Virus genome (UHGV): UHGV-0210061
DNA: 34,719 nucleotides
Origin: a virus
Reading direction: 5' to 3' (one strand)
In this document: piece by piece, positions 5,916-34,719 of the stretch
How positions within the stretch are numbered: the stretch's first letter is position 1
Layout: every line of letters begins with the position of its first letter
Notes under the pieces: model-generated
Databases searched by the model: none
What the model was told of the DNA's origin: nothing
What the model saw: the letters and a program-made list of their open reading frames with translations, nothing else
Translations under genes and position numbers: made by a program

Positions 5916-5919
5916 GAGA

Positions 5920-6252: not shown

Positions 6253-6305
6253 AACCATTATCCCCATCGTTACTTATTGGTTTTTATTTGTAACAAAACA
6301 TTTTG

Positions 6306-6333: not shown

Positions 6334-6341
6334 GAAATATA

Positions 6342-6357
6342 CCCCGCATATGCGGGG
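6342..6357 (-). terminator. perfect palindrome CCCCGCATATGCGGGG just downstream of the ogr stop; probable ogr terminator
   Basis: 16-bp perfect hairpin followed on the minus strand by TATATTTCTT (weak U-tract). Confidence 0.4.
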
Positions 6358-6363
6358 TATATT

Positions 6364-6612
6364 TTAAACTGCGAGGGTAAGCTGATCGTTGCCGTAGTGC
6401 GATGCAGGAAACGCATCTGAAGGGATGAAGCCCGGCGGTAACTTTTCACGCGGTGTGCGCTTCGTTACCAGTTTTTCAACGCTGTTTAGCGTGGTGAAAG
6501 TGATACTACATTCAAAATTCTGGCACTGGTGATAATGCCGAACGGTGGTATTGCTTAACGAGCGACTGGTACGCGTTTTTGCAACGGCACCACAAACAGG
6601 GCACTTAAACAT
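6364..6612 (-). CDS. ogr: Ogr/Delta-family zinc-finger late-gene transcription activator
   Basis: MFKCPVCGAVAKTRTSR...VRHYHQCQNFECSITFTT closely parallels P2 Ogr (MFHCPLCQHAAHARTSR...ERYHQCQNVNCSATF). GGGAGG SD. Confidence 0.85.
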   Translation of the reverse strand: MFKCPVCGAVAKTRTSRSLSNTTVRHYHQCQNFECSITFTTLNSVEKLVTKRTPREKLPPGFIPSDAFPASHYGNDQLTLAV

Positions 6613-6657
6613 GATGGCCTCCCGGGGCGGGAGTTGAACTCGCTCATATTATGGCCG

Positions 6658-7812: not shown

Positions 7813-7870
7813 GATTGCCCTCCGCCGCTGATAGTTCCATGCGCGCGCGAGGCATGCGACGGCTTTTTGT

Positions 7871-7888
7871 TGTCACGGAACGCCCACA
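7871..7888. promoter_or_regulatory. Ogr-type late promoter dyad TGT-N12-ACA (extended GTTGT...ACAAC) in the D/FI divergent region
   Basis: TGTcacggaacgcccACA with 5-bp extended arms. Centre sits about 55 nt upstream of a predicted FI transcript start (GATTAT -10-like at 7923-7928). Being palindromic, it could also serve D on the other strand. Confidence 0.6.
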
Positions 7889-7963
7889 ACCACCGCCACG
7901 AGACGACACCATGTATTTCAGGGATTATCACCCCGAACTCACTAAACATGATGGCGGTAGAGT

Positions 7964-9145: not shown

Positions 9146-9661
9146 ATGGCTATTCCTAAAAAATTGCGGCTGTTTACCCTCTTTGTGGACGGGGAAAACT
9201 ATATCGGGAAAGTGCCGAGCGTCACGCTCCCGAAACTCACCCGGAAAACAGAAGACTATCAGGGCGGCGGCATGCTTGGCGCGGCGGGTGTCGATCTCGG
9301 CCTGGAAGCCGGGGCGCTGGATGCATCAATGATTGTCGGCGGTGTAGTCGAAGAGCTGATCCTGAAATGGGGCGGCGATATTGACGAATTGCGCCTGCGC
9401 TTTGTGGGTGAGATTTACAGCGGCGGTACCAGCTCGCTGCTGGAAGTCGAAATGCGCGGCCGCATCACTGAAATTGATCAGGGTGAAGCAAAACAGGGTG
9501 ATGACACAAACCACACCTATGCGATCAAAAACACCTATTACAAAGAATCAGTAGACGATAAACCCTTGCTGGAAATCGACCTGCTGAACTTCATCTACAA
9601 ACGCAACGGTAAGAGCCTCTATCCAGATCGGATTGCCTCCGCGCTGGGCCTCGGCCAGTAA
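9146..9661 (+). CDS. FII: tail tube protein FII
   Basis: 171 aa versus P2 FII 172 aa. GGGAGGTG SD; starts 1 nt after the FI stop. Confidence 0.9.
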   Translation: MAIPKKLRLFTLFVDGENYIGKVPSVTLPKLTRKTEDYQGGGMLGAAGVDLGLEAGALDASMIVGGVVEELILKWGGDIDELRLRFVGEIYSGGTSSLLEVEMRGRITEIDQGEAKQGDDTNHTYAIKNTYYKESVDDKPLLEIDLLNFIYKRNGKSLYPDRIASALGLGQ

Positions 9662-9712
9662 CTTTTTAACCACTATCAATGGCGGCCAGACCGGCCGCCC
9701 GGAGAATTACCA

Positions 9713-10012
9713 ATGTCTGTTACTTTAAGCAAGCCTATCAAACGCGGTGATCAGGAAATTAAAACCATCATTATCACCGACACTATTAAGCAGGCTGGCT
9801 CGCTGCGCGGCCTAAAACTGGTTGATGTGCTCAACTTCGACTATGACGCCGTTTCCACGCTGCTGACGCGCACAACCAGCCCGCAACTGACAGCTGTCGA
9901 GATTGCCACGATGGCGACCGGCGACTTTACTGCGCTGTGTGAAGAGATCACGCCTTTTTTGACGAAAGCGGAGCCGTCCGCAGTCACCGAAGCGGCGACG
10001 GCGAGCAAGTAA
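9713..10012 (+). CDS. E: tail assembly chaperone E (0-frame product)
   Basis: 99 aa. GGAG SD. Contains slippery TTTTTTG near the 3' end. Confidence 0.8.
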   Translation: MSVTLSKPIKRGDQEIKTIIITDTIKQAGSLRGLKLVDVLNFDYDAVSTLLTRTTSPQLTAVEIATMATGDFTALCEEITPFLTKAEPSAVTEAATASK

Positions 10013-10185
10013 GAGAAGCAGTTATCTCCGATATCGACGACCTGATCGCCGATATCGCTGTTATTTTTCACTGGCCGCCCTCCGAGATGTACGGCATGGA
10101 GCTGCGCGAGCTGATAGCCTGGCGCGAACGGGCGGCTATCAGAAGCGGCAACCATGACAAGGAGGATGACGACGATGGATCTTAG
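9713..10185 (+). CDS. E': E+E' fusion by programmed -1 frameshift at T_TTT_TTG (9955-9961)
   Basis: The heptamer is in X_XXY_YYZ register with the E frame. The -1 frame continues for 74 codons (…HWPPSEMYGMELRELIAWRERAAIRSG…) to TAG at 10183-10185, overlapping the T start, as in P2 E/E' and lambda G/GT. Confidence 0.6.
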
Positions 10186-13105: not shown

Positions 13106-13114
13106 GTGGCAATT

Positions 13115-13603
13115 ATGATGATGGTTTTCGGGATGTTTGTTTTTACGCTGCGCACAGCCCCTTATCAGCAGCTCCAGCACGCGCAGGAATGGCGGCATGT
13201 TAAAAACGACCGGGTTAATCAGTCTGCCGGGTGGCAGTACATCGGGCCGGGTGAGGACAATATTACCCTGTCCGGGGTGCTCTTTCCGGAAATTACCGGC
13301 GGCAACCTGTCGCTTTCTGCGCTGGAGACGATCGGATTTTCAGGCCGCCCCTGGCCGCTGATTGAAGGGGATGGACGGATTTACGGGATGTACGTCATGA
13401 CGCGGCTGGAACGAGGAAATACAGAGTTCGATCAGTTCGGTGGCGCAAAAAAAATTGAATTTACGTTAAGCCTCAGCCGGGCGGACGCAGATTTTCGTGA
13501 GAAGCTGCAATCATCCTCCATCAGCGATGCCCTGGCAGACCTTCAGGCCAGCGCCACCAAAGCTATTAACGCAACAACTAACTCAGTTAATCGCCTGTTT
13601 TAA
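13115..13603 (+). CDS. U: tail protein U
   Basis: MMMVFGMFVFTLRTAPYQQLQH parallels the P2 U N-terminus. GGTGG SD. The preceding GTG at 13106 is read as part of the T stop context. Confidence 0.85.
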   Translation: MMMVFGMFVFTLRTAPYQQLQHAQEWRHVKNDRVNQSAGWQYIGPGEDNITLSGVLFPEITGGNLSLSALETIGFSGRPWPLIEGDGRIYGMYVMTRLERGNTEFDQFGGAKKIEFTLSLSRADADFREKLQSSSISDALADLQASATKAINATTNSVNRLF

Positions 13604-13613
13604 TCCAACAAAA

Positions 13614-13632
13614 AGCCCCTCATCGAGGGGCT
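13614..13632. terminator. bidirectional rho-independent terminator between convergent U (+) and tail-fibre (-) genes
   Basis: AGCCCCTC-atc-GAGGGGCT hairpin flanked by A5 upstream and T-rich sequence downstream. Confidence 0.65.
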
Positions 13633-13701
13633 TTGCTATACCGGCAAACATCACCACTTCTGACCGTGCTGCAGCTCCGTTATTTTTGACGATGCTCGAT
13701 A

Positions 13702-14892: not shown

Positions 14893-15117
14893 TTAATCGG
14901 CATACAACCCCACACCATTGACGCACATGATGTAATATCCGCCGGGTTGCGGGTTGTATTTTTCAACAAATGCCGCCGTCACCGTAATCGGGTCGGTGAT
15001 TTCCTGCTCATCATCCGGGGTGATAACAGCAAATCCACCGTCATCAGCCGTAATTGATTTAATTCTGATGACATACGCAGGAATCAGCACATTGTCGTTT
15101 ATTACTTTCTCTCTCAT
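14893..15117 (-). CDS. hypothetical 74-aa protein translationally coupled to the tailspike gene (ATGA overlap)
   Basis: ATG at 15117 with GAGGTG SD; lies between the tailspike and fibre genes. Confidence 0.45.
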   Translation of the reverse strand: MREKVINDNVLIPAYVIRIKSITADDGGFAVITPDDEQEITDPITVTAAFVEKYNPQPGGYYIMCVNGVGLYAD

Positions 15118-17240
15118 CACAACACCTCAATTTCTACAACGTAGGGCATGTCTTCCGTGGCTGCCGGATTAGGGGGCAGGACAATCTGGATCCTGCGACC
15201 AGAATTGACCGCATAAGACACACTGTTATTAACCTGACCATTCGACAGGGTAAGCGTGGTACTACCGATGGTCGCGTGCTGTAAAAACGGATTATCGGCC
15301 AGTGAGGCTTTTGTCAGAAAACTACCCGTTTTGCCGGTGGTTTCCGTCAGTGCATTACCTGATTCCGTTGTCAGCGAGGCGGGTTGCTCTGAAAGGGGCT
15401 TAACAATACAGGGGAAATCCGTCCCTCTTACCTCAACATCCCACTCAGAGATTTGGGGCTGATACTTATCGACGTTAAAGCTGTGCAGCCGCACCCGCAG
15501 GCGCTGGCCCGGCAGTAAAGAACTCAGGGTATAGGTTTTACCTGAGATACGCTCTGCTGCGGTAAATGAGCCTTCGAAATTTAACCGCATCCCTTTGGCG
15601 CGGATAACTGGATAGGCTCTTTTCAGAGAGGCATCATTAGCGGTGGTCTCCTGCGTGTAAATGCAGGAGTTCCAGACCAGTTGCAGGAGGTGGATTTTTG
15701 CCTGCAACAGCTGACCCGAAAGGTTCGTGACTTCGCAGTCAAATCGCGCATTCGGCCCCCGGGCACGGATAATATGTAAAACTTCGGTAGTGGCCTCTGA
15801 CGCCATTCCGTACCCGTCCCAGATAAAGGTCATCTTACCGGTGACAACCCCGTAATCCATGATATCAACGCCGGTATGCCAGGATGACCGACTCATCCAG
15901 CCCCTGATAGTCAGCACGGCGCTGTACATTGAGCACCGACCTTTCTCGGTGCCGTCGCCAATGCGAATATAAGAACAGGGATTCGGCACCCCGGCATTCA
16001 TATCAATTTCGCCTGTCACTGCAAAAAACGAGTCTGTCGCCGCCGCCCCTTCTGAGGTATTACGATGCAGACGTAACCCCACGACAGAGCCGCGTATCAT
16101 AACGTTGTCAAACCTGGCTTTTTCAGTCCAGGCGGTATCGTTATAAAGCGAAATGGCACTACCATTTGTATTATTATCGTAACCACCGATAAATAAATCT
16201 TTAAATAAAGACCCCCACATATCTGATGCCTGGAATGCTACTGCCCCGGTATAAATGTTATTTCCGGTAAGAGTGTCATTTCTTCCGGTTACCCGAAGGC
16301 ATTCAAATCCGCACGCCACCCAAAAATCCTTTGAGCTGGCATGATTGCGCTTAATACGCATCAGAACACCATTCCCTTTATGATAAATCATCGGCCCGTT
16401 ATGTCCGACACCCAGCCCCCTAACGGTAAAATTCATTCCATCGGAGACATCAGCCACAAATCCGTTACTGCCGTCAGAGAGGGTGTCAGCAATGTAATAT
16501 TTTCCGGCGGGTAATTTTGCAACCAGCACATCCTCAATACAAAATGTGCGGGATGCGCGAAACATATTTCTCAGGCATTCAATATAATCGCCACCATGCA
16601 TCAGACCGAACATATCAGAACAGATAAGCCGTAAATCTTTGCGTCGCAACACCTGCCCGTGATTATTAATAATCTGACACCCGTCATCATCCACATAATT
16701 ATTATCATTGGTCAGGGAATGACAGTACCAGGTACCGCCGCCCATACCCTGCCCGGCAGTATGTTCTTTAAGAAAAATCTGTTTCCCGACCGCATCAAAT
16801 TTAATCATTCTCAGCCGGTTAATATCCGGGCATTGCCCCACCATCGCAAGACCGTCAACGGCATTGAGGTTGTCACGGATTGCGGCATCAGATGTATACG
16901 CCCAGGCCCCGGCACCGATACCGCCGGTATTGAAGGGCGTCGACGCCGCCGGAACGTCTTTAGGAAACCACCCCGTCCAGACAAGTCGATAATTCCCGTA
17001 CAGAATTTCATCGCGTGGAGAATTAAGCGTCGCCCCCTCATCAAAGGTTTTAACCGCTTCCACCTTTGATGAAATATCGGCATCAGTTTCATCAAATCTT
17101 TCTTTCAGATAACGCGTGCGGTTTGCCAGTTTCTTTAACGGGCGGTTAGCCACGCCATCCTGACCGCCCGATACGCGCTCAGTTCTGCCAATCAGTTCAA
17201 TGCCGTCTTCCCATAATGGAGATTCGTTAATATCGGCCAT
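15117..17240 (-). CDS. tailspike-like protein with conserved N-terminal anchor motif and predicted parallel beta-helix (putative polysaccharide depolymerase)
   Basis: 707 aa from ATG 17240 (AGGTG SD). N-terminus SPLWEDGIELIGRTERVSGGQDGVANRPLKKLANRTRYLK; long Gly/Asn-rich repetitive middle (…GGYDNNTNGSAISLYNDTAWTEKARFDNVMIRGSVVGLRLHRN…) typical of pectate-lyase-fold tailspikes. Occupies the slot between I and H. Confidence 0.65.
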   Translation of the reverse strand: MADINESPLWEDGIELIGRTERVSGGQDGVANRPLKKLANRTRYLKERFDETDADISSKVEAVKTFDEGATLNSPRDEILYGNYRLVWTGWFPKDVPAASTPFNTGGIGAGAWAYTSDAAIRDNLNAVDGLAMVGQCPDINRLRMIKFDAVGKQIFLKEHTAGQGMGGGTWYCHSLTNDNNYVDDDGCQIINNHGQVLRRKDLRLICSDMFGLMHGGDYIECLRNMFRASRTFCIEDVLVAKLPAGKYYIADTLSDGSNGFVADVSDGMNFTVRGLGVGHNGPMIYHKGNGVLMRIKRNHASSKDFWVACGFECLRVTGRNDTLTGNNIYTGAVAFQASDMWGSLFKDLFIGGYDNNTNGSAISLYNDTAWTEKARFDNVMIRGSVVGLRLHRNTSEGAAATDSFFAVTGEIDMNAGVPNPCSYIRIGDGTEKGRCSMYSAVLTIRGWMSRSSWHTGVDIMDYGVVTGKMTFIWDGYGMASEATTEVLHIIRARGPNARFDCEVTNLSGQLLQAKIHLLQLVWNSCIYTQETTANDASLKRAYPVIRAKGMRLNFEGSFTAAERISGKTYTLSSLLPGQRLRVRLHSFNVDKYQPQISEWDVEVRGTDFPCIVKPLSEQPASLTTESGNALTETTGKTGSFLTKASLADNPFLQHATIGSTTLTLSNGQVNNSVSYAVNSGRRIQIVLPPNPAATEDMPYVVEIEVL

Positions 17241-17245
17241 ATTTA

Positions 17246-17842
17246 TCACCTGTAGCTGTTATTTCCATCATGGAAAACCATGCCGTTATAAAAAAGACTG
17301 TCATCCGGCTCGTATTCTTCCGGGTAAATACTGATTATGTCGCCACCATATAGCGCTGCCCCAGTGTAGATAAATCCCGTGACATGTGTAGCAATGCTCA
17401 TCTGCGAAATATGGCGGCTGACTGGTTTTGCGTCATTAATAAGGCGGTTCAACTCATCAAGAGTGCGACTCGTTAAACCAACCTCATTAACATTCACTTC
17501 GATCTGGAACGTCCCCGGCTCGTTACCGATCTCAAACCACTCGGCTAAAGTCGCCGAAAAACCCATATCCTCAATGACGCGCCGTACTGCACCGGACGTC
17601 CCCTTCCGGCGATGAAGCCAGTAGGAACGCTGGATTGACGCTATTTTTTTCTCTGCCGGCCAGCTCTTATCCCATCGGTCAACCGACAGCGCCCACGCCA
17701 GATACGGCAATAAATCAACCGGGCATGCCGTCGGCGTCCACAGCGTGCGAATGGCTACCGTGATTCCGGACAGCTTCGCCGTGGCAGCTTCGGCGCAACG
17801 CATCCACGCGCTGGCAGAGGGAGGAAGAAGCGTGTTATTCAT
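17246..17842 (-). CDS. I: baseplate protein I
   Basis: From ATG 17842 (MNNTLLPPSASAW…) it parallels P2 gpI (…LWNPDTCPANLLPWLAWAFSVDRWDEKWPE… vs LWTPTACPVDLLPYLAWALSVDRWDKSWPAE). Overlaps the J stop. Confidence 0.8.
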   Translation of the reverse strand: MNNTLLPPSASAWMRCAEAATAKLSGITVAIRTLWTPTACPVDLLPYLAWALSVDRWDKSWPAEKKIASIQRSYWLHRRKGTSGAVRRVIEDMGFSATLAEWFEIGNEPGTFQIEVNVNEVGLTSRTLDELNRLINDAKPVSRHISQMSIATHVTGFIYTGAALYGGDIISIYPEEYEPDDSLFYNGMVFHDGNNSYR

Positions 17843-18734
17843 CCGTTCCGCCGTTTTCCAGGTTGTAGCCGATATTCCTGGCCGCCTGGATATCGCTGAG
17901 CCTGATATCGTCCGGCGGGGCATTCAGCACGACACGCTGTACGCCCTGGACATGGAGCGCCGCTGAAATGGCGGAGCGCGCCACGTCTCTGCTGATTTTT
18001 TTATCGTTCTGTTTCAGGAACTTTTGCAACGATGCATCAGCAGCATTGATGATCGGCTCTGACTCCGGCCCCGGATACAGGTACAGCGTGGCGTCAATCT
18101 CGTAATCGACAATCTCAGCGCTGCGCACCGTCACACGATCACCCAATGGGCGAACCTCTTCATCGTTTACCGCTTCGGCAACAGCGGCCAGCAGTTCTGG
18201 CGACGCGGTACCGTCGCCCTCGGTGGACAGCACCGCAATAATCACTTCGGCCGGTGCCGGGCTGGAAGCCCTGGCATCGGCAACTTTTCCGCTGGCGCTG
18301 CGGGCAAAGTATTCATAGGCCGCCGATGGCCCGGCGACACTCATTCCCTCAAAAGCAGCCTGCGCCCGCAGGCGTAGCGCCTCGTCACTTTCCATTTCGG
18401 CATCAGTTGTCTCGGTTGCTTCGGTCTTGATCAGGCGTTCGGTATCGAGGTTCGCCGCGATATTATCCAGATCGTCACCGGTCGAATGACTCAGCATGCA
18501 GGCGGCCGCCCCTTCGTTAATACGCTGGCGCAGTAACATCTCGCGATATGCCAGTGCCTGGGCGAGTACATTTAATGGTTCAGACTCCAGCGCCAGGGCA
18601 GCAATAACGGCGGCCTGCTGATCTGCCGGATAAGCGGCTACCATCACCGCTTTCACCTCGATCAGAATTTCTTCAAAATCCAGTTCCTCGATAATGGTCG
18701 GCTGCGGCAGCTGCGAGAGATCAATTGTCGGCAT
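17835..18734 (-). CDS. J: baseplate protein J
   Basis: 299 aa versus P2 J 302 aa. Synteny W-J-I. Confidence 0.85.
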   Translation of the reverse strand: MPTIDLSQLPQPTIIEELDFEEILIEVKAVMVAAYPADQQAAVIAALALESEPLNVLAQALAYREMLLRQRINEGAAACMLSHSTGDDLDNIAANLDTERLIKTEATETTDAEMESDEALRLRAQAAFEGMSVAGPSAAYEYFARSASGKVADARASSPAPAEVIIAVLSTEGDGTASPELLAAVAEAVNDEEVRPLGDRVTVRSAEIVDYEIDATLYLYPGPESEPIINAADASLQKFLKQNDKKISRDVARSAISAALHVQGVQRVVLNAPPDDIRLSDIQAARNIGYNLENGGTDE

Positions 18735-19089
18735 TTTTGGCGCTCCTTAACGTTACCGATCTGGTGCTCTTTTCCATGCTTTCAGTCAGCATTCCGGATA
18801 GCTCCGCCGTTACTGCGCCCGAAGCAGAATAGTGAATATTGATAGCGTCAAGCGCGATCCGCGGCTCCCATGCAGCCAGCGCGATAACGGCGGCGCTCAT
18901 CAGTTGCAGTCGCGTGACGTCATTCTGCGGGCTGTCGATCAAATCCGGGCAAAGCGAGCCGTAATTGCGGCGCATAATGCGCGTATTAACTGGCGTCAGC
19001 AGAATATCGCCCACGGACTGCCACACATGATCTTCATCCGTCAGCGTTCCGGTGCCGTTCGCATTCATACCGCGATAGCGCTCACTCAT
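18721..19089 (-). CDS. W: baseplate protein W (gp25-like)
   Basis: MSERYRGMNANGTG…ILLTPVNTRIMRRNYGS parallels P2 W (MTARYLGMNRSDG…ILRTPVGSRVMRRDYGS). Confidence 0.8.
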   Translation of the reverse strand: MSERYRGMNANGTGTLTDEDHVWQSVGDILLTPVNTRIMRRNYGSLCPDLIDSPQNDVTRLQLMSAAVIALAAWEPRIALDAINIHYSASGAVTAELSGMLTESMEKSTRSVTLRSAKNADN

Positions 19090-19670
19090 CGGATGCCCTC
19101 CGTCCAGTCATCACCACGTTCAACTTTGCCGTGATTGTGGTTATCCACCTGCACGCCGTTAGAGATAAACGCCCCGCCGGCATGATTAAAATCACCGCGC
19201 ATTTCCCCGCCTTCGGTGATATCAAGATTTTTCGCGCGCAACAGGTTGGTGCAGTTCACCTCTGGCGTATCCAAAGTGACGATAACCGACGCCTCGATCA
19301 CCGCCGATTTAATACCCGTCACCTGTAAGGCGCCCGCCTCGGCGTCATAACGAAAACGCGCACCATCAGGAGCCGTGACTACCATTTCATTACGTGTCGC
19401 GCCCGGCGCCGGATTGTCGTTGCTGTACAGGCTGCCGCCAATGATGGCGGTATCCGTGTTACCTCCGAGACACAAGAGCCAGACCTGCTCGCCAATGGAT
19501 GGCGGCACCCAGACCTTAAATGCCCCGGCCCGTTGCGCGTTCCAGCGTAGCCAGGTGGTTTCCAGTCCGCCGCTTTGTACCCGGACGAGCCAGTTTTCCT
19601 CGTCAATCTCCGTCACCGTACCGGTGCGGCCGATGTTCTCCAGCAGGCGGATCAGTTCGGCAATATCCAT
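19086..19670 (-). CDS. V: baseplate spike protein V
   Basis: 194 aa; shares the VTLDTPEV..CTN motif with P2 V. Overlapping stop/start with S and W. Confidence 0.8.
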   Translation of the reverse strand: MDIAELIRLLENIGRTGTVTEIDEENWLVRVQSGGLETTWLRWNAQRAGAFKVWVPPSIGEQVWLLCLGGNTDTAIIGGSLYSNDNPAPGATRNEMVVTAPDGARFRYDAEAGALQVTGIKSAVIEASVIVTLDTPEVNCTNLLRAKNLDITEGGEMRGDFNHAGGAFISNGVQVDNHNHGKVERGDDWTEGIR

Positions 19671-27620: not shown

Positions 27621-28673
27621 TTGAGCAAACGAAAATCCATGCGCGGCAGGCAGTATGCCAGGGAGCAGGCCGATCTCGCCGTCTCGCTAAAAGCTGCACC
27701 CGAGCTGAACTCATTCACATTCGACGGCCCCTGGCCGGTGAGTGGCGCGTATGACCTGCTCGATAACATGTACTGCGCCGATAACGGGCGATACTACGAA
27801 ACTCCGGTTGACTGGTACGGTCTGGCCCGCCAGTTCGGCTATGCCAGCTGGCACCAGTCGGCGCTGTACTTCAAACGCAACGTGCTGGCCGGTTGCTTTA
27901 TCCCGCACAAACTGCTTTCCCGTCAGGTGTTCTCATCCTTCGCTCTGGACTGGTTCGTATTCGGTAACGGCTATCTGGAGATGAGGAAAAACCGGCTTGG
28001 CGGTTCTCTCGGCTTCCGTAACTCGCTGGCTAAATATACCCGTCGCGGCTCCGACCTGGACACCTACTGGTTTATTCAATCCGGGCTACAGGATCACCAG
28101 TTTACAACTGGCTCTGTCTGCCACGTTCTTAGCCCGGATATTCACCAGGAGATCTACGGTATGCCGGAGTATTTCGCCGGTTTGCTGTCGGCTAACCTGG
28201 CACATTCTGCCGACAAGTTCCGCAAACTCTATTACGACAATGGCTCGCATGCCGGGTGTATCGTCTACGTGAACAGCGCAATGGCCGATCAGGAGAGCCT
28301 CGACAAGCTGAAGAAGACGCTAACAGATACCCGACGCGGCGGGGCATTCAAAAACATTCTTCTTCACGCCCCTAACGGCGGCAAAGACTCCGTGCAGATC
28401 CTGCCGTTCAGCCAGATATCGGCAAAGGATGAATTCGTAGGGGTGAAGTCCTCCACCCGCGATGACATGTTAGCCGCGCATCGGGTGCCGCCTCAATTAA
28501 TGGGCGCCATTCCGGAAGGCAACGGATCATTTGGCGATATCGAGAAGGCGGCCCGCGTCTTCGCCGTCAACGAGCTGACGCCATACATGGAAGCCATGAA
28601 GCATGTTAACGACTGGCTGGGCGAAGAGGTGATCCGCTTCAATCCTTACGCACTGCTCGAAAGCACGAAGTAA
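27621..28673 (+). CDS. Q: portal protein Q
   Basis: 350 aa versus P2 Q 344 aa. TTG start 2 nt after the P stop with GGAG SD. The 3' end lies ~230 bp from cos, as in P2. Confidence 0.85.
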   Translation: MSKRKSMRGRQYAREQADLAVSLKAAPELNSFTFDGPWPVSGAYDLLDNMYCADNGRYYETPVDWYGLARQFGYASWHQSALYFKRNVLAGCFIPHKLLSRQVFSSFALDWFVFGNGYLEMRKNRLGGSLGFRNSLAKYTRRGSDLDTYWFIQSGLQDHQFTTGSVCHVLSPDIHQEIYGMPEYFAGLLSANLAHSADKFRKLYYDNGSHAGCIVYVNSAMADQESLDKLKKTLTDTRRGGAFKNILLHAPNGGKDSVQILPFSQISAKDEFVGVKSSTRDDMLAAHRVPPQLMGAIPEGNGSFGDIEKAARVFAVNELTPYMEAMKHVNDWLGEEVIRFNPYALLESTK

Positions 28674-28904
28674 CACCAGGCCGCATCGTCATTTCTGGCG
28701 GTGCGGTACCCGCCAACCCGTATCACCGCCCAGGCCACACAGGCCGCTCACTCACTTCCGAATCCCTACACCTCACCAGACGCCGCCAGCGCCATTCTGG
28801 CGCATTCTCTTGTTCTCGCCACCTGGATTTGCACCAGAAGTCAGCGCGCGACAGGACGCGACTGGCGAACGATACGACCCCCTCCCTTACCCCCTTTACG
28901 CGCG

Positions 28905-28923
28905 CTTGCTCCCCCGCCTCGCC
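28905..28923. other. cos: cos site (P2-type 19-nt cohesive end region)
   Basis: Minus-strand GGCGAGGCGGGGGAGCAAG: the first 12 nt are identical to the P2 cohesive end GGCGAGGCGGGGAAAGCAC (from memory). Located just beyond the Q 3' end. Confidence 0.6.
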
Positions 28924-28944
28924 TGCGCGCTAAACCTGCCTCTT

Positions 28945-29036
28945 TTTGTGCACTTTGTGCAAACCGCCAAACCCTTGCCAGTGCTGGCTCTGCATAGCAA
29001 AAACGACGTTTTAAAAATTGTGCAAATTTGTGCACC
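28945..29036. repeat. four copies of TTGTGCA in two tandem pairs (28945-28963 and 29017-29036), ~10-bp spacing within pairs
   Basis: TTTGTGCACTTTGTGCAAA and ATTGTGCAAATTTGTGCACC, one helical turn apart within each pair; between cos and the 3' end of the HNH gene. Confidence 0.4.
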
Positions 29037-29068
29037 TTTATGCGCCTCAAGATATGTCGTTCAGACAT

Positions 29069-29785
29069 TTACCTTATAACGCTAGGAAACTCTGCAGATT
29101 TCTTTATTACGAGCCGCCTTGAATGCAACCTCCTAATTATTTCATTCAGGTATATTTGTGGTATATCAATAAAATCCTGATCGTTCTCATAGCTATCATT
29201 CACAAGAACCTGCTGTTCAATTGCATTAATTGTATCAATATCTTCAGTACCGTACGACTCAACAAATGAATATCTTGATAATTTGCAGGTAATAATGGTC
29301 TCGAGTCCTTTATCTGTAAGGTATGTATACGCATAATAATTCCCTACCTTCTCTATTTCTATGTTATCACTGTATCGATCAAAGTGTGGATGGATAATAG
29401 AGAATTGTTTTTCATCCTGCGGGTATTTATATCTTAAAAACTGGTTTTCATCCATCAATGGGATCTTATTGCTTTTAAATCCATTGCACTCCTTACAGGC
29501 TAAAATTAAATTCAATGGTTGAAATAAAAACTGTGGGTAACGATCCTTTGGTAAAATATGATCAATGTCCCACGATAAACCATGAGAAGTATGATTATGC
29601 ATTCTGCAATAAGCACATAAATGCCCTTGTTCTTTTAAATAATGCTTTCTTATCTCTTTTCGGATAATAGATATAGTTCCCTTCGTCCCCTCCCATACTC
29701 GAAAATCCACCCGATCATATCGATTGTACTTTAATATAAACTTTCTACTTTTTTTTGAAAACTTTATTTTTTTTGAAATCCTCAT
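29069..29785 (-). CDS. HNH endonuclease (PtuB-like)
   Basis: CAYCRMHNH…DIDHILPKDRYP…NLILACKECNGFKSNK (CxxC…HNH…DH…N…CxxC). ATG at 29785 with GAGG SD, 5 nt after the ATPase stop. Roughly 30% GC. Confidence 0.8.
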   Translation of the reverse strand: MRISKKIKFSKKSRKFILKYNRYDRVDFRVWEGTKGTISIIRKEIRKHYLKEQGHLCAYCRMHNHTSHGLSWDIDHILPKDRYPQFLFQPLNLILACKECNGFKSNKIPLMDENQFLRYKYPQDEKQFSIIHPHFDRYSDNIEIEKVGNYYAYTYLTDKGLETIITCKLSRYSFVESYGTEDIDTINAIEQQVLVNDSYENDQDFIDIPQIYLNEIIRRLHSRRLVIKKSAEFPSVIR

Positions 29786-29792
29786 AAAAACC

Positions 29793-31370
29793 TCACATAG
29801 AGAACATGCCAATGGCCTGCTTTAACAAATGTTCAATGGTATTATTCTCGCTCCTTTCGCTAAAAACATCCTTATTTAATTCAAACATTTTAATTGCTCT
29901 ATCTAAAAATTGAATTTCATTTCCAGACAATTCTTTTCTGATATTTTGCTTTGCAATTATAGTGGTAAGCATTCTTATGACATATTCGTTATGTTCTCCG
30001 GGATAATTTAACGTTGCAAAAAGTTGGTAGTCTGATGATTTACCCCTAACAATGGACCCAGGAATAGCACCCTGATCACTACCAAGAATTGCTACACTAG
30101 AGTTATCCCTAGGGAGACTACTCACAACCTGGGGGGAATGCGTTGCAATAATAAAATGGCATCCTTTGTAATTAATGAAACATCGCTGTAACTCAGGAAT
30201 GATTTTTTTTTGCCACGCAGGGTGCAAGCTTATCTCTGGCTCGTCAATCATGATTATAGTGTTATCTTCAATCTCACTATTAATCCTCAACAGCATAAGA
30301 AAAATACATAACTCACCGGAACTCATTTTATCCGATTCTACCAAATGATCACCTTTCTTGAATGTTAGATGTTCAACATTTACTATTCTCATTTCTGATA
30401 AAAATAACATATCCTTTATTAAACCTTCCTCGAGAATTGTATTCTCATCAAAAGAAAAGGTTACAAATGGCGAACCCATCACAAAAAACATACCATCCTC
30501 ATCATCACGAAAATGACTCCGAGTTTCTTCATCAAGTAATCCACAAAAATATTTCAGCATTCTCTCTGTAGTATGAATCATTTCATCAGTTATAACTGTT
30601 GCATTCCCTTCTTCATCATGAGGGACTATCTTCTTCAAACTTTCTTTAAATTTTTCCAAATCCTTTATGCCGTCTAGATTTGCGCCTGCGAGATAATGAT
30701 TCACTGTTAAAACTAAAGTAACATTTTCAGTCACTCCAAAACTTCGCATAAAAGCCATAGAACGAATATAATTTACTTTATCAGTAAATAGCAGTTTTAT
30801 GACCTCATGACCTAAAACTTTATTAATAAAACTATCATCAGAAAAACCACCGAATTTTAAAACATCTTTAGAAAGAGATAGGTTTTTATACTTATCAGGA
30901 TCATGAAAAGGGAACGAATGAGATTGACCAAAACCTTCAATAAAACGATTAAATAAGCTATTGGAAACACATATTAATTTCGGATGCAATTCTTTATCTG
31001 CAACTGTAATTGACGAAGAAACACTTCCGTCATCATGGATTGTTAAATCATTTAATATGCCGCCCACATAATAGCTGAAACTTAATGATGAAAAAGGAAT
31101 ACTTGTCCTTAAAATATGTTTTGAATACTTAAATTGTTTTTGAAACTGTTCTTCGTGAACAGGATAAAGCTCAATAAAAAAAATACAGAATGACATTATC
31201 TCCAACGCTCGACTTTTTCCAACTCCATTCTTCCCTGTAAGAACAGAAAAATAATTATCATCATTTTGGATTACAGGATCATGAACTAAACTCACAGATA
31301 AATCATCCACGACAAAACTGTTAATAAGCACTCTACTATTCATAATTAACTCACTTAAATTTAAATTCAT
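29793..31370 (-). CDS. ABC/OLD-type ATPase (AAA_15/21-like; PtuA-like)
   Basis: Walker A LTGKNGVGKSR; Walker B IIMIDEPEISLHP; H-loop region IIATHSPQVV. 525 aa. Very AT-rich. Starts 60 nt after the gene A stop. Confidence 0.8.
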   Translation of the reverse strand: MNLNLSELIMNSRVLINSFVVDDLSVSLVHDPVIQNDDNYFSVLTGKNGVGKSRALEIMSFCIFFIELYPVHEEQFQKQFKYSKHILRTSIPFSSLSFSYYVGGILNDLTIHDDGSVSSSITVADKELHPKLICVSNSLFNRFIEGFGQSHSFPFHDPDKYKNLSLSKDVLKFGGFSDDSFINKVLGHEVIKLLFTDKVNYIRSMAFMRSFGVTENVTLVLTVNHYLAGANLDGIKDLEKFKESLKKIVPHDEEGNATVITDEMIHTTERMLKYFCGLLDEETRSHFRDDEDGMFFVMGSPFVTFSFDENTILEEGLIKDMLFLSEMRIVNVEHLTFKKGDHLVESDKMSSGELCIFLMLLRINSEIEDNTIIMIDEPEISLHPAWQKKIIPELQRCFINYKGCHFIIATHSPQVVSSLPRDNSSVAILGSDQGAIPGSIVRGKSSDYQLFATLNYPGEHNEYVIRMLTTIIAKQNIRKELSGNEIQFLDRAIKMFELNKDVFSERSENNTIEHLLKQAIGMFSM

Positions 31371-31431
31371 TAATAGTTATAGCGATACTTCTTCTTTAAT
31401 TCAAGATAAAAGAGATAATACACCTCACTGA

Positions 31432-34071
31432 CTAAGGGTTTTTAGCTGTGCTTCTATTCACAACTTTTAGCAAGCGAATCATTAGATGGTGTAGATAGAC
31501 AAGCTCTTGATGAGATTTACTTTCATGATTACCATTATATAAGATTCTCTCTCTTAATATACCGTTATAAACACTAAACAATCTACCATTGCGGCGTATA
31601 AAAGCTCCAGCAGCAACTGATTTCACAACTTGATCACTGACGAAAATCCGGCAGTCGCGGAGCTGCGCGCCGATGCTGGCGATCATCTCTTCGGAGATGC
31701 CGTGTTTTTGCGTCGCTTCTTCTTGCTGCGCCTGACGCAATGCTGCCTCTGCTTTTTTCTTCTGATACTCCGCAACCGCAGCCGCGTAGTTATCTGCGCG
31801 CCGTTCCGCCTCGATCCGCAGTTGCTCGCGCCAGCGCTGCTCGGCCTCTTCTGCCGTCAGACTCATGTCTTTCGCGGCGGTGACTTTTGGCCCCCATGTA
31901 AGCGCGGTTTCGTCATCAATCGACGTGCGCAAGCCGCGCGCGGTACGCGTGAAGGCTTGATCTGAGCTTTCCCGAGCGGATTTTCTTAGCCTGCTGGTGA
32001 TCTCCTGCCTTTGCTGGCGTGAGTATCGCCTCAAAACATCGATATTCAGCGGAAGTTCTATCACTGAACTGTCGTCTTGAGCGGTTTTATCAGCTGGCAC
32101 TGCCTTTTCTGACGGTGGTTTTTCATCCAAAACAGAGCGCCCCGTACAGTTATTGACAGAACTCCGAGGGGCCGCTGCGCGGCCTTCTAAGGTCAAATTC
32201 TCGACCGGCGACGGCTTACGCTTCGGCACAATCTTGTAATCGGTGGTGCGGGTGAAAATGACAGAATCACCGCCCGAATACGGGCAGTAGATACCAGTGA
32301 TTTTGGCGACCGTGTCACCATAATCGTTGCCATCCTCGGTGTATTCGTAGTTGAGGCGAACGCGCAGGCAATCTCGCGGAACAAATGGGCCACCCTGGGC
32401 GTTGGTGTATCCCGGCCAGTCCGGCGCATCAGCTGCCGCGCGGGCCGCTTCAAGTTCCGGATGCAATACCAGCTCACGGCTACCCAACCGGCGCAGCTCG
32501 CGCCAGGTAGTAACGGGAGCGCCTCCAATCTGCTGAAACTGGCGAATGCTCCAACGAGAAGCCCACGCCCGAACGCGCTTTGCCATCTCCTTGACTGGCT
32601 GGCCGGACTCGTCGTCTAACTCGCCATCCATGCCGTAACCGTCGATATTCTTTGAGATGTATTTCGCGATGTATCCCGTCGCTGAGCCAAATTTTTCATC
32701 AATCGGCGTGACGGTAAAACGGTGCTCTTGAGCGCCTGGCTCGCCACCGTCTTCACGCAGCGCATGTTTGCGGAAAATAGCCGTGGCGTACTCAGCCTCT
32801 TCTGGTCGCAGGAATAACAACAGGTGCCAGTGTGGGGTTCCATCATGATGCGGTTCGGCAACACGAAAACCAAAGGTGCGAATGCCTTCGCGCCCCCATT
32901 TGGCACGGACGCGCGACCATACTTTGCAGAGGTATTTCTGAGTTTTGCGCGGGCTGGCGTCGCGGTATTTATCGTTTCGCTTCCCGGATTGCACATGCGT
33001 TGAGTGATAACGCGACGGCGCAGTCAAGGTGTAGAACATGCCGACCAGGCCCATTTCGTTAGCCATATCTTCAAACCCGCGCATGCGTACCATCAGCTCA
33101 TGGCGCGCGATCTTCGGGTTGGATACGCTACCCATGACCTTATCCAGCAAAGAACTACGCTCGCCGGTGTCCTGGTCTTCCAGCTCCATCGCATTAAGAA
33201 ATTCAAGGTTTGCTTTTTTCTGGGCTATCCACTCTTTGAAGCACGGATCAGAACAATACGGCGAGGCTACCTTACTGACATAGCCAGCGGCGATCATGAG
33301 GTGCTCGCGCCAGCAGTCATGGATCCGGCGGATTTTACCTAACCACCACTTTTCTGACTGAAGGCGCGCAACGGCACGCAGCGCCTCTTCGGCCTCCAGC
33401 TTCTCTTCGCAATACCGGCTCCAGCCAGGGATCGCGATATTGAGCGCTGTCGCTTTACTGGCGATAAATCCGTATGCGTAAAGCGTGGAAAACTCAACAT
33501 CAGCGGTTTTCTCATACTGAAAATCAAACTCGCGCATAAACTCGCTTTTCATCAGGTTGGCGAGCTTATAAGCCAGTCGTTTCAGGCGTTTTTTGTCCGC
33601 CCAAGGCAGCAGGTGAAAATCATCACGGAGGGGCGCAAGGATCGCCGGGAGCGCGGCCTGCGGTAGGTATTGTGCGTTTACCGCATCGACACGGCGTAAG
33701 ACATGGCGTTCAAACGTACTGAACAGCCAGCGCACGGCCTCTTTTGGGTCGTGACGCTCCAGCGATTCCAGGCGCAGAGAGAACCGCTTGCGGATAAACG
33801 CCGGTAGAGTCTGAACCCGTCGGCGCAGGTAGTGGGCGCGTCCCTTGCGGTCGAATGCTTCACGCGCGGCACCTTCGCGCGGGCGCATGGGGGTGCGATA
33901 AACGGTATCGACCAAATCCGCATAGGCGAGCGTCTTCCGCTCGCCTTTCGGGGTGAGATACTCAATTTGAGGATCTGAGACGTGGTTGGGGTTGATAGCC
34001 TGCCGTTTGGCGTTCCATTCCCAAACTAAGGAGGAATAGTCAGACATGATCTGCCTTTTCTGGCTCGCCAT
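31432..34071 (-). CDS. A: replication initiation protein A (rolling-circle nickase, P2 gpA family)
   Basis: EPHHDGTPHWHLLLF and GYIAKYISKNIDGYG (tyrosine active-site motif) closely parallel P2 A. Start ambiguous (TTG 34080, ATG 34071, ATG 34047). ~880 aa versus P2 761 aa. Confidence 0.85.
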   Translation of the reverse strand: MASQKRQIMSDYSSLVWEWNAKRQAINPNHVSDPQIEYLTPKGERKTLAYADLVDTVYRTPMRPREGAAREAFDRKGRAHYLRRRVQTLPAFIRKRFSLRLESLERHDPKEAVRWLFSTFERHVLRRVDAVNAQYLPQAALPAILAPLRDDFHLLPWADKKRLKRLAYKLANLMKSEFMREFDFQYEKTADVEFSTLYAYGFIASKATALNIAIPGWSRYCEEKLEAEEALRAVARLQSEKWWLGKIRRIHDCWREHLMIAAGYVSKVASPYCSDPCFKEWIAQKKANLEFLNAMELEDQDTGERSSLLDKVMGSVSNPKIARHELMVRMRGFEDMANEMGLVGMFYTLTAPSRYHSTHVQSGKRNDKYRDASPRKTQKYLCKVWSRVRAKWGREGIRTFGFRVAEPHHDGTPHWHLLLFLRPEEAEYATAIFRKHALREDGGEPGAQEHRFTVTPIDEKFGSATGYIAKYISKNIDGYGMDGELDDESGQPVKEMAKRVRAWASRWSIRQFQQIGGAPVTTWRELRRLGSRELVLHPELEAARAAADAPDWPGYTNAQGGPFVPRDCLRVRLNYEYTEDGNDYGDTVAKITGIYCPYSGGDSVIFTRTTDYKIVPKRKPSPVENLTLEGRAAAPRSSVNNCTGRSVLDEKPPSEKAVPADKTAQDDSSVIELPLNIDVLRRYSRQQRQEITSRLRKSARESSDQAFTRTARGLRTSIDDETALTWGPKVTAAKDMSLTAEEAEQRWREQLRIEAERRADNYAAAVAEYQKKKAEAALRQAQQEEATQKHGISEEMIASIGAQLRDCRIFVSDQVVKSVAAGAFIRRNGRLFSVYNGILRERILYNGNHESKSHQELVYLHHLMIRLLKVVNRSTAKNP

Positions 34072-34086
34072 GTGCGGCAAACTTTC

Positions 34087-34116
34087 TTGCCCTCAAACAC
34101 AGCAGATGGTTAGTAT
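34087..34116 (+). promoter_or_regulatory. sigma70-like promoter TTGCCC-N18-TAGTAT for the plus-strand gene
   Basis: Lies in the gap between the A start and the 34148 ATG; AAGGGA SD follows. Confidence 0.45.
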
Positions 34117-34147
34117 TGCCAACGCATACAGCAAAAAAGGGATAAAA

Positions 34148-34423
34148 ATGAAAGATAAATATGTAGAAGGAAAAGTGAAGTCCTCCATTGATGAGAAAAT
34201 CTCCGAAGTAGTCCGCAAAGCGAAGGATGCTGAACTTGGTGGCATGCCGATGCTGACAGCGATTCAAAATGAAGCTGGTGATATTTACCGCGTCATTACT
34301 GTTGATGGTCTTGGCGCATACCTGGCTCTCGTTCAAGGCATTGCTAAACTTGGGCTGACTGATCTTCATGCAGATAACCTTAATCCTGGAAAATACGATT
34401 CATTGTTCGTTTTCAAGCAATAA
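34148..34423 (+). CDS. hypothetical 91-aa protein on the strand opposite the early operon, with its own promoter and terminator (moron-like)
   Basis: MKDKYVEGKVKSS…; AAGGGA SD 5 nt upstream. Lower GC than flanks. Strong terminator downstream. Confidence 0.55.
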   Translation: MKDKYVEGKVKSSIDEKISEVVRKAKDAELGGMPMLTAIQNEAGDIYRVITVDGLGAYLALVQGIAKLGLTDLHADNLNPGKYDSLFVFKQ

Positions 34424-34561
34424 GCTCTGGCGGCAAAATGCCGCCTTTTGTTGCTTTTTTGACTTGTATTTATTGACATATTTCCATGCATCAACCTGTT
34501 CCAGCAGCCGATTCATTAGCTCATTTCCTTTGAGTTGATACTTCTCTTCGTACAAAGCCAT
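34400..34561 (-). CDS. possible 53-aa ORF (MALYEEKYQLKGNELMNRLLEQVDAWKY…) with strong AAGGAG SD; runs through the terminator hairpin
   Basis: ATG at 34561 with AAAGGAGAAAACTAA upstream. However, the coding region overlaps the convergent plus-strand gene end and terminator, so it may be spurious. Confidence 0.3.
   Translation of the reverse strand: MALYEEKYQLKGNELMNRLLEQVDAWKYVNKYKSKKQQKAAFCRQSLLLENEQ
34429..34460 (+). terminator. rho-independent terminator (GGCGGC-aaaat-GCCGCC + TTTTGTTGCTTTTTT)
   Basis: Canonical hairpin plus U-tract 5 nt after the stop at 34423. Confidence 0.7.
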
Positions 34562-34719
34562 TTAGTTTTCTCCTTTGATTTCACTACATTTTTATAAGAG
34601 ACCACAGCGCATCCCAGACCACAGAGCCAACACGAAAGGCGAGATAGCCCATCGGGATCCAGAACAACAGCGAGCAAAGCGCACAACAGATCACAAGGTT
34701 TCGCCAGAACCGGCGGTAA

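Follow-up and report, generated by a model that had tools for sequence, protein, structure and literature searches.

The window, that is, the whole stretch of 34,719 nucleotides analysed here, comes from a P2-like phage of Klebsiella pneumoniae in which two neighbouring minus-strand genes, ptuA and ptuB, lie between gene A and a P2-type cos site (Table 1). The GC content is 33.2% in both genes (GC3 of 0.27 in ptuA and 0.32 in ptuB) and 33.1% across the variable segment that holds them, compared to 54.3% in the rest of the window, 56.3% in gene A upstream of position 31625, and 55.9% in the portal gene, bearing out the foreign composition that an earlier, sequence-only reading of this DNA had proposed. 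That reading had also placed the pair between gene A and cos, and the position stood, with gene A ending at 31432 and a cos-like sequence on the far side of ptuB. The gpA-gpQ slot is a P2 defence hotspot (PMC9122126; PMC13586616), and in every related Klebsiella prophage we examined for context this slot holds the same gene pair (L003, L004, L085, L086, L087, L178, L179, and L180).

Table 1. Features of the ptuAB cassette and its surroundings (window coordinates).
Feature	Position	Strand	Details
Portal gene (gpQ), right hotspot border	27621-28673	+	PF04860 Phage_portal, from the 99.7%-identical L001 protein
cos-like site	28905-28923	-	GGCGAGGCGGGGGAGCAAG; first 12 nt are P2 cosL/cosR, GGCGAGGCGGGGAAAGCAC
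Weak terminator-like hairpin downstream of ptuB	29020-29035	-	GTGCACAAATTTGCAC, then AATTTTTAAA; consensus scan; 5-bp stem, of which 3 pairs are G-C
Variable (cargo) segment of the hotspot	29044-31624		2581 bp
ptuB, HNH nuclease of Septu	29069-29785	-	238 aa; alternative start TTG 29812 gives 247 aa, overlapping ptuA by 20 nt
PtuB second conserved motif, IIHPHFD	29378-29398	-	aa 130-136
PtuB HNH beta-beta-alpha-metal core and zinc-finger cysteines	29483-29617	-	C57-x2-C60, D73-I-D-H76, N92, C97-x2-C100-N101
PtuB NLILAC and CKECN	29483-29512	-
PtuB DIDH	29558-29569	-
PtuB CAYC	29606-29617	-
ptuA-ptuB junction	29786-29797	-	GA of the ptuA TGA stop opens the ptuB Shine-Dalgarno sequence, GAGG
ptuA, ABC/SMC-type ATPase of Septu	29793-31343	-	516 aa; alternative upstream ATG 31370 gives 525 aa
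PtuA C-lobe motifs together	30129-30326	-
PtuA H-loop, ATHSPQ	30129-30146	-
PtuA D-loop, SLHP	30219-30230	-
PtuA Walker B, IIMIDEPE	30234-30257	-
PtuA signature, MSSGE	30312-30326	-
PtuA Walker A, GKNGVGKS	31212-31235	-	aa 37-44; K43 in 516-aa numbering
Candidate sigma-70 promoter, TTGAAT-N17-TATAAC	31376-31404	-	gene A-ptuA spacer; weak, inferred, read from the sequence
Last ~64 codons of gene A	31432-31624	-	AT-rich, 35% GC; travels with the cargo segment
Gene A, replication endonuclease, left hotspot border	31432-34080	-	PF05840 Phage_GPA, from the 94.7%-identical L001 protein

Breakpoints at 29034-29043 and 31624/31625 were found against six other elements with different cargo, marking the segment between them as hotspot cargo. 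Homology to CP052639.1, a P2-like element of Klebsiella whose cargo is small and different, ends at 29043 and restarts at 31625; the gene-A-side breakpoint at 31624 was also found against L178, L179, and L180, and cos-side breakpoints at 29034-29035 against L003, L086, and L087. On its gene A side, the cargo segment takes in the last ~190 nt of the gene, the tail of which is divergent yet alignable at the protein level to other gpA tails. Two further candidates near cos were set aside. A 75-aa minus-strand open reading frame (ORF) just after the ptuB stop and across cos (28841-29068) was rejected as spurious, given its GC-rich, Arg/Gly-rich translation, the lack of any public gene call, and the cutting of virion DNA at cos. 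An exact 13-nt match between the ptuB 3′ end (29117-29129) and a region near P2 cos was taken as chance, since its distance from cos is not the same in the two and it had an E-value of 0.008 in a tiny search space. Elsewhere in the window, the FI-U tail block looks inverted; its order is colinear with the Klebsiella phage Kp4860-2, and we therefore regard it as a lineage trait and reject misassembly. PADLOC, Pfam, and PHROGs scans of the remaining unassigned ORFs in the window returned no further known defence systems, and there are no flanking inverted repeats of note around the cassette.

Both ORFs of the sequence-only reading exist (29793-31370, 525 aa, and 29069-29812, 247 or 238 aa), but the overlap it described between the two genes is unlikely. 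In ptuA, the alignment of 23/23 homologues begins at the second ATG and a length of 516 aa is given by most public gene calls, making ATG 31343 the most likely start; in ptuB, every public gene call gives 238 aa, and the GAGG Shine-Dalgarno sequence lies 5 nt upstream of ATG 29785. Translated from these codons, the genes are free of overlap, with 7 nt between the ptuA stop codon (TGA, 29793-29795) and the ptuB ATG. The shared nucleotides of stop codon and Shine-Dalgarno sequence at this junction (Table 1) likely couple the translation of the two genes. Similarly, the gap from the gene A stop, previously given as 60 nt, is 61 nt to ATG 31370 but 88 nt to the likelier ATG 31343. The TTGAAT-N17-TATAAC promoter noted earlier does exist in this spacer. 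A consensus promoter scan did not report it because its -10 element lacks the final T, and as this element ends only 5 nt before ATG 31370, the candidate promoter is better suited to the 516-aa start than to the longer 525-aa form. Upstream of 5/6 divergent cassettes, the aligned position again has a TTGA and, ~17 nt further on, an A/T-rich hexamer, which is suggestive, though only that, of a ptuA promoter. Since the cassette has the same direction as the early operon, expression may come mainly in lytic growth.

The ATPase and HNH motifs read earlier from the translations were all located and intact, with invariant residues across 24 homologues of each protein. In PtuA, this applies to every nucleotide-binding motif (Walker A Lys, Walker B Asp/Glu, signature, and H-loop), with G37, N39, G40, G42, and K43 of Walker A and S341, S342, G343, D367, E368, P369, E370, H374, T401, H402, S403, and P404 of the C-lobe invariant among the 24 sequences. 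In PtuB, C57, C60, H76, N92, C97, C100, and N101 are invariant (24 homologues), and in the second conserved motif I130, P133, and D136 are invariant, with H132 and H134 kept in at least 90% of homologues (n = 24). The Pfam family matches that the sequence-only reading had made a condition of its proposal also lie above their cut-offs: PtuA matched AAA_21 (1e-19, 72 bits; cut-off 27) and AAA_15 (2e-12, 48 bits; cut-off 32), and PtuB matched HNH (1e-5, 25.9 bits; cut-off 21.4). The signature position in PtuA is Glu (MSSGE), whereas it is Gln in retron PtuA and is reported to be Leu in solved stand-alone PtuA (PMC12819146); the ATPase behaviour of this protein may therefore differ.

Profile comparisons assign the two proteins to Septu, the stand-alone form of which, PtuA/PtuB, was reportedly described by Doron et al. 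in 2018. The PADLOC PtuA1 model PDLC00283 matched PtuA with an E-value of 7e-70 (aa 33-495, profile 20-422 of 448), three more PtuA1 models matched at 1e-62 to 6e-38, and the PtuB1 model PDLC00335 matched PtuB at 7e-64 (aa 14-206, profile 2-189 of 214). These near full-length matches uphold the Septu fit that had been suggested from architecture and size, and that of PtuB takes in the non-HNH C-terminal domain. Among solved structures, PtuA showed sequence matches to 8ee4 and to the Ec83 and Ec78 PtuA, with PDB-chain matches covering only the Walker B/H-loop region, and PtuB to the PtuB chains 9n69_F and 22bv_F. The structures 8EE4, 8EEA, and 8SUX are of E. coli PtuAB. In the AlphaFold model of PtuA (pLDDT 81.5), PtuA chains made up 50/50 of the PDB fold matches listed, including the E. 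coli Septu complex 8eea, with E-values of 6e-13 to 4e-8, TM-scores of 0.28-0.46, and 12-16% identity over the structural alignments. For the PtuB model (pLDDT 77.4), the top fold matches were the PtuB chains 9n6b_F, 9n69_F, 9u9y_H, 9nnb_J, and 8eea_G (TM ~0.36-0.44), followed by Cas9 HNH domains. The fold comparison agrees with the profiles in placing solved PtuA and PtuB chains as the best matches; domain orientation and a divergent central domain are the probable cause of the low TM-scores. The gene order is likewise that of Septu (ptuA upstream of ptuB, adjacent, on the same strand), and a PtuB relative is also present in 121/164 loci holding a PtuA relative.

Several other ATPase-nuclease families resemble Septu, including PARIS (AriA/AriB), Gabija, OLD class 1/2, and PDC-M01, and the PtuA C-lobe does match PADLOC models for AriA (9e-22), PDC-M01A (5e-18), and ATPase-Toprim_I-B (OLD-type/retron I-B; 1e-16), with further sequence matches to the AriA structures 8v45 and 8ux9 and a match of PtuB to PDC-M01B (1e-13). 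However, these matches span ~60-110 residues around Walker B and the H-loop, while the PtuA1 match spans ~460 residues and is ~50 orders of magnitude better, and what ptuA is paired with encodes an HNH protein that matches PtuB from end to end, with Toprim and DUF4435 absent. Membership in one of these families is accordingly highly improbable.

A closer question is posed by type I-A retrons of the Ec78/Ec83 kind, which use the same two protein families and of which the cassette could be a degenerate or split remnant, its reverse transcriptase and msr-msd RNA lying elsewhere or having been lost. The best PDB E-values do belong to retron-associated chains of PtuA (2.9e-10 for 9e8z in the sequence comparison; about 1e-12 for 9n6b and 9kjy in the fold comparison), and PtuA, at 516 aa, is nearer in length to its retron counterparts (542-552 aa) than to the solved stand-alone protein (465 aa). 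Against this, all ORFs of at least 250 aa in the 34.7-kb window are P2-type genes or a methylase, none being a reverse transcriptase, and the hotspot relatives carry the same two genes between gene A and portal, the sole extra being a 166-aa ORF in L180. Rfam, which need not hold every retron RNA, gave no match at the gathering score in the window and none at E ≤ 1 in 28600-31800. The retron models NF041760 and NF041761 of NCBIfam also scored far below their cut-offs (64.1 bits vs. 500 for PtuA and 36.3 vs. 150 for PtuB). A retron origin of this kind is extremely unlikely, in line with what had been concluded from the sequence at the outset, and the lack of both reverse transcriptase and retron RNA points to stand-alone Septu.

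Since ptuB lies 146 nt from the cos-like site, with the portal and terminase genes next, its product might also be imagined as a phage housekeeping factor, such as an HK97-type HNH endonuclease helping terminase cut cos. The cassette is, however, dispensable in this phage family, its slot being occupied by a 150-aa hypothetical gene in CP052639.1 and by old/tin in P2; its composition is foreign; ptuB is always paired with ptuA; and it is PtuB-specific profiles that match the protein in full, C-terminal domain included. We consider such a role hardly credible.

Taken together, the two genes very probably make up a type I Septu system of the stand-alone form, directed against phages and borne by a P2-like phage of Klebsiella pneumoniae as cargo for lysogenic conversion in its gpA-cos-gpQ hotspot.

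The weak candidate promoter and weak ptuA ribosome-binding site, along with the annotation of a truncated 321-aa ATPase on identical DNA in L168 and L169, would be compatible with a relic, in which a cassette derived from Septu has lost its expression or function. The truncated call is an annotation artefact, given that the L169 DNA is 100% identical to the window; both ORFs are intact, with all catalytic residues conserved; the public assembly index lists the exact PtuB in 126 blocks (24 contigs examined); and variants differ by only 0-9 substitutions over 6 kb. Decay of this sort is highly improbable. The cassette was located through exact-protein look-ups in public assemblies, where several Klebsiella pneumoniae assemblies carry it at 100% identity under generic gene names only (e.g., the 238-aa PtuB as 'HNH endonuclease [Klebsiella pneumoniae]'). 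In near-identity DNA searches of the phage and E. coli collections (query 28600-31700), the flanking portal gene and gene A were matched and the cassette was absent, and the plasmid collection (query 29044-31624) gave no match. A tblastn search of phage records returned short C-lobe matches only. A scan of genome contigs found distant PtuA relatives only (e.g., in Photobacterium, Chryseobacterium, and Pseudomonas), in a collection that holds one genome per species and is uninformative for the Klebsiella clade.

The nearest distinct relatives are 30-44% (PtuA) and 31-66% (PtuB) identical to the cassette proteins, and their ranking depends on the part compared. The N-terminal and central parts of PtuA are nearest to the L003 type, while the C-terminal extension and PtuB are nearest to the L178-L180 type, indicating a mosaic ptuA. 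Residues ~61-330 of PtuA are hypervariable (15-40% identity between alleles), and the ATPase C-lobe, the C-terminal tail, and ptuB are more conserved. One possible account, which we put forward tentatively and consider rather less than probable, is that the PtuAB cassettes of the Klebsiella P2 hotspot form a natural allelic series in which the N-terminal/central part of PtuA has repeatedly recombined onto a conserved module of C-lobe, extension, and PtuB. The breakpoint may lie at the conserved signature/Walker B region, and the window allele may be one such chimera. If the swapped part served to sense the trigger, different alleles would respond to different phage determinants, and prophages would be exchanging 'specificity cartridges' of Septu, in a manner comparable to the swapping of specificity subunits among restriction-modification systems.

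By analogy with characterised Septu systems, a course of action can be proposed. In the lysogen, ptuAB would be expressed from its own weak promoter and/or by read-through from gene A. PtuA would oligomerise and hold PtuB through its C-terminal extension, and ATP-bound PtuA would keep the nuclease quiet; in stand-alone E. coli PtuAB, PtuA is a hexamer bound to PtuB at 6:2, its C-terminal extension binds the PtuB C-terminal domain, and ATP reduces DNA nicking (PMC12819146). Infection by another phage would then release HNH activity. The reported Septu trigger is a tail-fibre protein, stand-alone PtuAB being sensitised by the tail fibre (PMC12819146), and we propose the hypervariable residues ~61-330 as the candidate trigger-sensing part, with the C-lobe, C-terminal extension, and PtuB as the effector module. 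The released nuclease would either nick DNA or cleave host tRNA-Tyr in the variable loop. Cleavage of tRNA-Tyr in the variable loop has been observed for Septu EcB88, in which mutating Walker A/B or HNH residues abolishes phage resistance and the equivalents of K43 and D316 (PtuA) and H75 and N91 (PtuB) are essential (PMC13096335). Translation or replication would stop, the infection would abort, and the lysogen population, and hence the prophage, would be protected.

The biology is what one would expect of a known system type in a known hotspot that is detectable by standard HMMs, and with the cassette Klebsiella pneumoniae gains a further prophage-borne Septu system among its defences. Its practical use would be in predicting which therapeutic phages fail on lysogens of this P2-like prophage. 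Wider value lies only in the highly divergent alleles of this one slot, with which the part of PtuA deciding trigger specificity could be mapped and which could show whether the substrate, DNA or tRNA-Tyr, varies among alleles of Septu.

Among known systems, P2 old/tin occupies the same slot between gene A and cos, as had been read from the sequence, and consists of non-essential lysogenic-conversion genes that exclude other phages. The orientation relative to gene A is opposite, however: transcription of old and tin leads away from cos and towards gene A, while ptuAB is read towards cos, in the same direction as gene A. P2 OLD is likewise an ATPase-nuclease combination, with an ABC-type ATPase head joined to a nuclease, but it is one polypeptide with a Toprim nuclease, while the nuclease of the cassette is a separate HNH protein. 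The effectors of type I-A retrons (Ec78/Eco7, Ec83) share both protein families and a similar PtuA length with the cassette but come with a reverse transcriptase and msr-msd RNA, neither of which it has. Septu type I, like the cassette, is an operon of two genes in which that for the ATPase precedes that for the HNH nuclease, with intact Walker A/B, signature, H-loop, and HNH residues, no retron parts, and residence in a mobile-element hotspot. The differences lie in PtuA, which is only 12-14% identical to solved E. coli PtuA in structural alignments, is ~50 residues longer, and has a clade-specific, hypervariable central domain. Divergent PtuAB cassettes of Klebsiella/Raoultella P2-like prophages (P0002-P0028; L003, L085-L087, L178-L180) share its slot, orientation, and motifs, with PtuA of 457-522 aa and PtuB of 233-239 aa, and the cassette is, like them, a divergent member of a known system type and not a new kind.

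The ATPase gene and HNH nuclease gene lying between gene A and the portal gene are best described as a Septu pair, ptuA and ptuB. Against the PADLOC models, the ATPase matched PtuA1 (PDLC00283) at E 7e-70, with aa 33–495 aligned to positions 20–422 of the 448-position profile, and three further PtuA1 models (1e-62 to 6e-38) at nearly full length. The AriA, PDC-M01A, and ATPase-Toprim models were ~50 orders of magnitude weaker and covered the Walker B and H-loop region only. The small protein matched PtuB1 (PDLC00335) end-to-end at E 7e-64, and this defense-HMM scan thereby bears out the PtuA/PtuB assignment proposed in the sequence-only reading. The Pfam families AAA_21, AAA_15, and HNH all scored above cut-offs, while a PDB sequence search returned the PtuA of Ec83, Ec78, and E. 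coli Septu, plus AriA, for the ATPase, and the PtuB of type I-A retrons for the small protein. In AlphaFold models built from family alignments (pLDDT 81.5 for PtuA, 77.4 for PtuB), all 50 listed PDB fold matches to PtuA were PtuA chains, the E. coli Septu complex 8eea among them, and PtuB chains ranked first for PtuB, followed by Cas9 HNH domains. Given that the TM-scores of these matches were low (0.28–0.46), the fold agreement is at the domain level; the relative domain arrangement in the models appears to differ from that of the solved chains, as does, probably, the central PtuA domain.

Across 24 homologs of each protein, the invariant residues comprise the Walker A K43, signature S341-S-G343, Walker B D367/E368, and H-loop H402 in PtuA (516-aa form), and C57/C60, H76, N92, and C97/C100/N101 in PtuB (238-aa form), which carries a second conserved motif, IIHPHFD. 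The equivalents in Septu EcB88, PtuA K43 and D316 and PtuB H75 and N91, are essential for defense (PMC13096335). The PtuA signature motif here reads MSSGE, with Glu in the last position, in contrast to the Gln of retron PtuA and the Leu reported for solved stand-alone PtuA (PMC12819146). The latter is reported to lack ATPase activity (PMC12819146), and the Glu seen here may have a bearing on ATPase behavior.

The cassette is predicted to be a stand-alone Septu system. A retron-Septu was rejected, in agreement with the earlier reading, as no ORF able to encode a reverse transcriptase occurs anywhere in the window and no Rfam family matched in the window at gathering score, or even at E ≤ 1 in the cassette and its flanks. 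The retron Ec78-based NCBIfam equivalogs scored weakly (PtuA, 64 bits vs. a cut-off of 500; PtuB, 36 bits vs. 150). No tRNA genes or notable repeats were found in the window.

At 34,719 bp, the window seems to represent an entire P2-like phage genome in circularly permuted form: a 98%-identical prophage contig (L001) runs past the window end and resumes at the window start. The full P2 gene set is present (integrase, C, cox, gene A, portal, terminase, capsid, tail sheath, tail tube, and gpD). The cos-like site and flanking genes (Table) place the cassette in the gpA-cos-gpQ slot, home of old/tin in P2, upholding the position first proposed for it, and this slot is a published defense hotspot of P2-like phages (PMC9122126; PMC13586616). 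The contrast in base composition with the phage core likewise held: ptuA and ptuB are both 33.2% GC (GC3 of 0.27 and 0.32, respectively), whereas gene A and the portal gene stand at 56% and the remainder of the window at 54.3%.

Table. Coordinates of the cassette genes and their flanking features.
Feature	Position	Strand	Remarks
ATPase ORF (ptuA)	29793..31370	-	525 aa, from ATG 31370
HNH ORF (ptuB)	29069..29812	-	247 aa, from TTG 29812
Gene A	31432-34080	-	one flank of cassette
Portal gene	27621-28673	+	other flank of cassette
Cos-like site GGCGAGGCGGGGGAGCAAG	28923..28905		first 12 nt identical to P2 cosL

The two ORFs had been described as overlapping; their coordinates and lengths are exact, but the overlap is lost with the preferred starts. 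The second ATG of the ATPase gene (31343) is the start position in 23 of 23 aligned homologs, and most public gene calls give a 516 aa product. The small protein is 238 aa in every public gene call, and a GAGG lies 5 nt upstream of its ATG (29785), its first two bases being the last two of the ptuA stop codon. With these starts, 7 nt separate ptuA and ptuB, a layout that would be suited to translational coupling. The TTGAAT-N17-TATAAC noted previously upstream of the cassette is present on the minus strand (31404–31376), with its −10 element ending 5 nt ahead of ATG 31370, so that a transcript from it would be leaderless if translated from the 525-aa start, while use of the 516-aa start would leave a leader of ~25 nt. 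This candidate promoter was not reported by a consensus promoter scan. In five of six cassettes that otherwise do not align, the corresponding upstream position also has TTGA with an A/T-rich hexamer ~17 nt on, a recurrence that is no more than suggestive. As the consensus scan predicted no terminator between gene A and ptuA, early-operon transcripts could plausibly also read through into the cassette.

Comparison with elements carrying other cargo sets the variable segment at 29044–31624. Homology to a Klebsiella P2-like element with a different, small cargo (CP052639.1) ends at 29043 and picks up again at 31625; the 31624 breakpoint is common to the related loci L178, L179, and L180, and a 29034/29035 breakpoint to L003, L086, and L087. 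A recombination breakpoint of the hotspot thus falls within gene A, at 31624/31625: the final ~64 codons of the gene (31432–31624), which are AT-rich (35% GC) and change along with the cargo, belong to the swapped segment, and this tail is still recognizably homologous and alignable to other gpA tails at the protein level. In L003, which has a different gene A, 371 nt left over from the 3′ end of a window-type gene A lie downstream of that gene. The gene A protein is only ~30% identical to those of the Klebsiella P2-like prophages L003, L085, L086, and L087, and the portal and terminase proteins are 88–90% identical; the replication module appears to be exchanged independently of the structural module.

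Another variable spot of the early region lies upstream of gene A. Here, a low-GC stretch (34049–34594, ~0.42–0.45) just ahead of the start of gene A stands in place of the Dcm-type C5 DNA methylase (PF00145, 338 aa) of the related prophages L001, L171, and L179. Its 125-aa plus-strand ORF (34046–34423), antisense to the early operon, matched phrog_19905 (1.7e-27; function not assigned), with no match in Pfam or PADLOC. Also in the early region, the minus strand at 188–1743 codes for an orphan N6-adenine methyltransferase of Dam type (379 aa; PF02086 9e-54, PADLOC oMTase 6e-80), plausibly an anti-restriction function, and an Rv2179c-like 3′-5′ exoribonuclease (192 aa; PF16473 2e-51). Between the integrase (3731–4738) and gpD (6658–7812), the minus strand at 5019–6267 encodes a VasI-domain protein of 323 aa (PF11319, 7e-25, type VI secretion; phrog_1848), overlapped by an ORF of 115 aa (phrog_6586). 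Neither matched in PADLOC, and the att/ogr-proximal location of the pair makes it a possible moron. The block with the sheath, tube, and tape-measure genes of the tail and U (7964–13603) lies on the plus strand, and gpD and V-W-J-I-H (15117–19670) on the minus strand, unlike in P2, where all run in one direction. As 6300–13664, from the gpD/sheath junction through U, is colinear with Klebsiella phage Kp4860-2, this orientation is a lineage trait, and an assembly error is ruled out.

Four assemblies (GCA_900515075.1, GCA_053931165.1, GCA_021921105.1, and GCA_022298755.1) match positions 28674–34719 with 100% identity. They are taken to be Klebsiella pneumoniae on the grounds that the exact PtuB protein is entered at NCBI as 'HNH endonuclease [Klebsiella pneumoniae]'. 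The public assembly index lists that protein in 126 blocks, and public names are generic ('HNH endonuclease' for PtuB, 'AAA family ATPase' for PtuA relatives). The next-nearest PtuA proteins are 30–44% identical, those with a named source being almost all from Klebsiella or Raoultella, and all relatives with context examined (L003/L004, L085–L087, and L178–L180) occupy the same slot in the same orientation. In some public annotations (L168/L169), the ATPase is cut to 321 aa and gene A is missing, even though their DNA is 99.9–100% identical to the window (at most five substitutions and one gap); the short call is an annotation artifact, not a pseudogene.

Identity of PtuA to its relatives varies along the protein, at 15–40% for aa 61–330, 51–69% for the C-lobe (aa 331–420), and 33–64% for the C-terminal extension (aa 421–516). 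The L003 type is closest over aa 61–330 (35%; others about 20%), and the L178/L179/L180 type is closest over the C-terminal extension (50–51%, vs. 33–42% for the L003, L086, and L087 types) and PtuB (60–66% vs. 31–38%). DNA similarity to L178–L180 (65–71%) begins at ~30272–30326, close to the signature and Walker B motifs, with none upstream of this point, and extends via ptuB into the portal gene (L178, L179) or to 28786 (L180). In published work, the two proteins meet through the C-terminal extension of PtuA and the C-terminal domain of PtuB (PMC12819146), and the domain-wise identity pattern fits this. These comparisons suggest that the N-terminal/central part of PtuA is exchanged independently of the effector module, and we infer that this part may sense the trigger.

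By analogy with published Septu systems (PMC13096335; PMC12819146), PtuA would oligomerize and hold PtuB, with ATP binding restraining the nuclease. On infection, HNH cleavage would be released, as DNA nicking or a tRNA-Tyr cut in the variable loop, and the infection would then abort. The trigger reported for Septu is a tail-fiber protein (PMC12819146). Taken as a whole, the sequence comparisons support a divergent Septu member. The type of system, its hotspot, and the way of detecting it were all established before, and the sequences are already public; a modest upside lies in the clade's allelic and mosaic structure.
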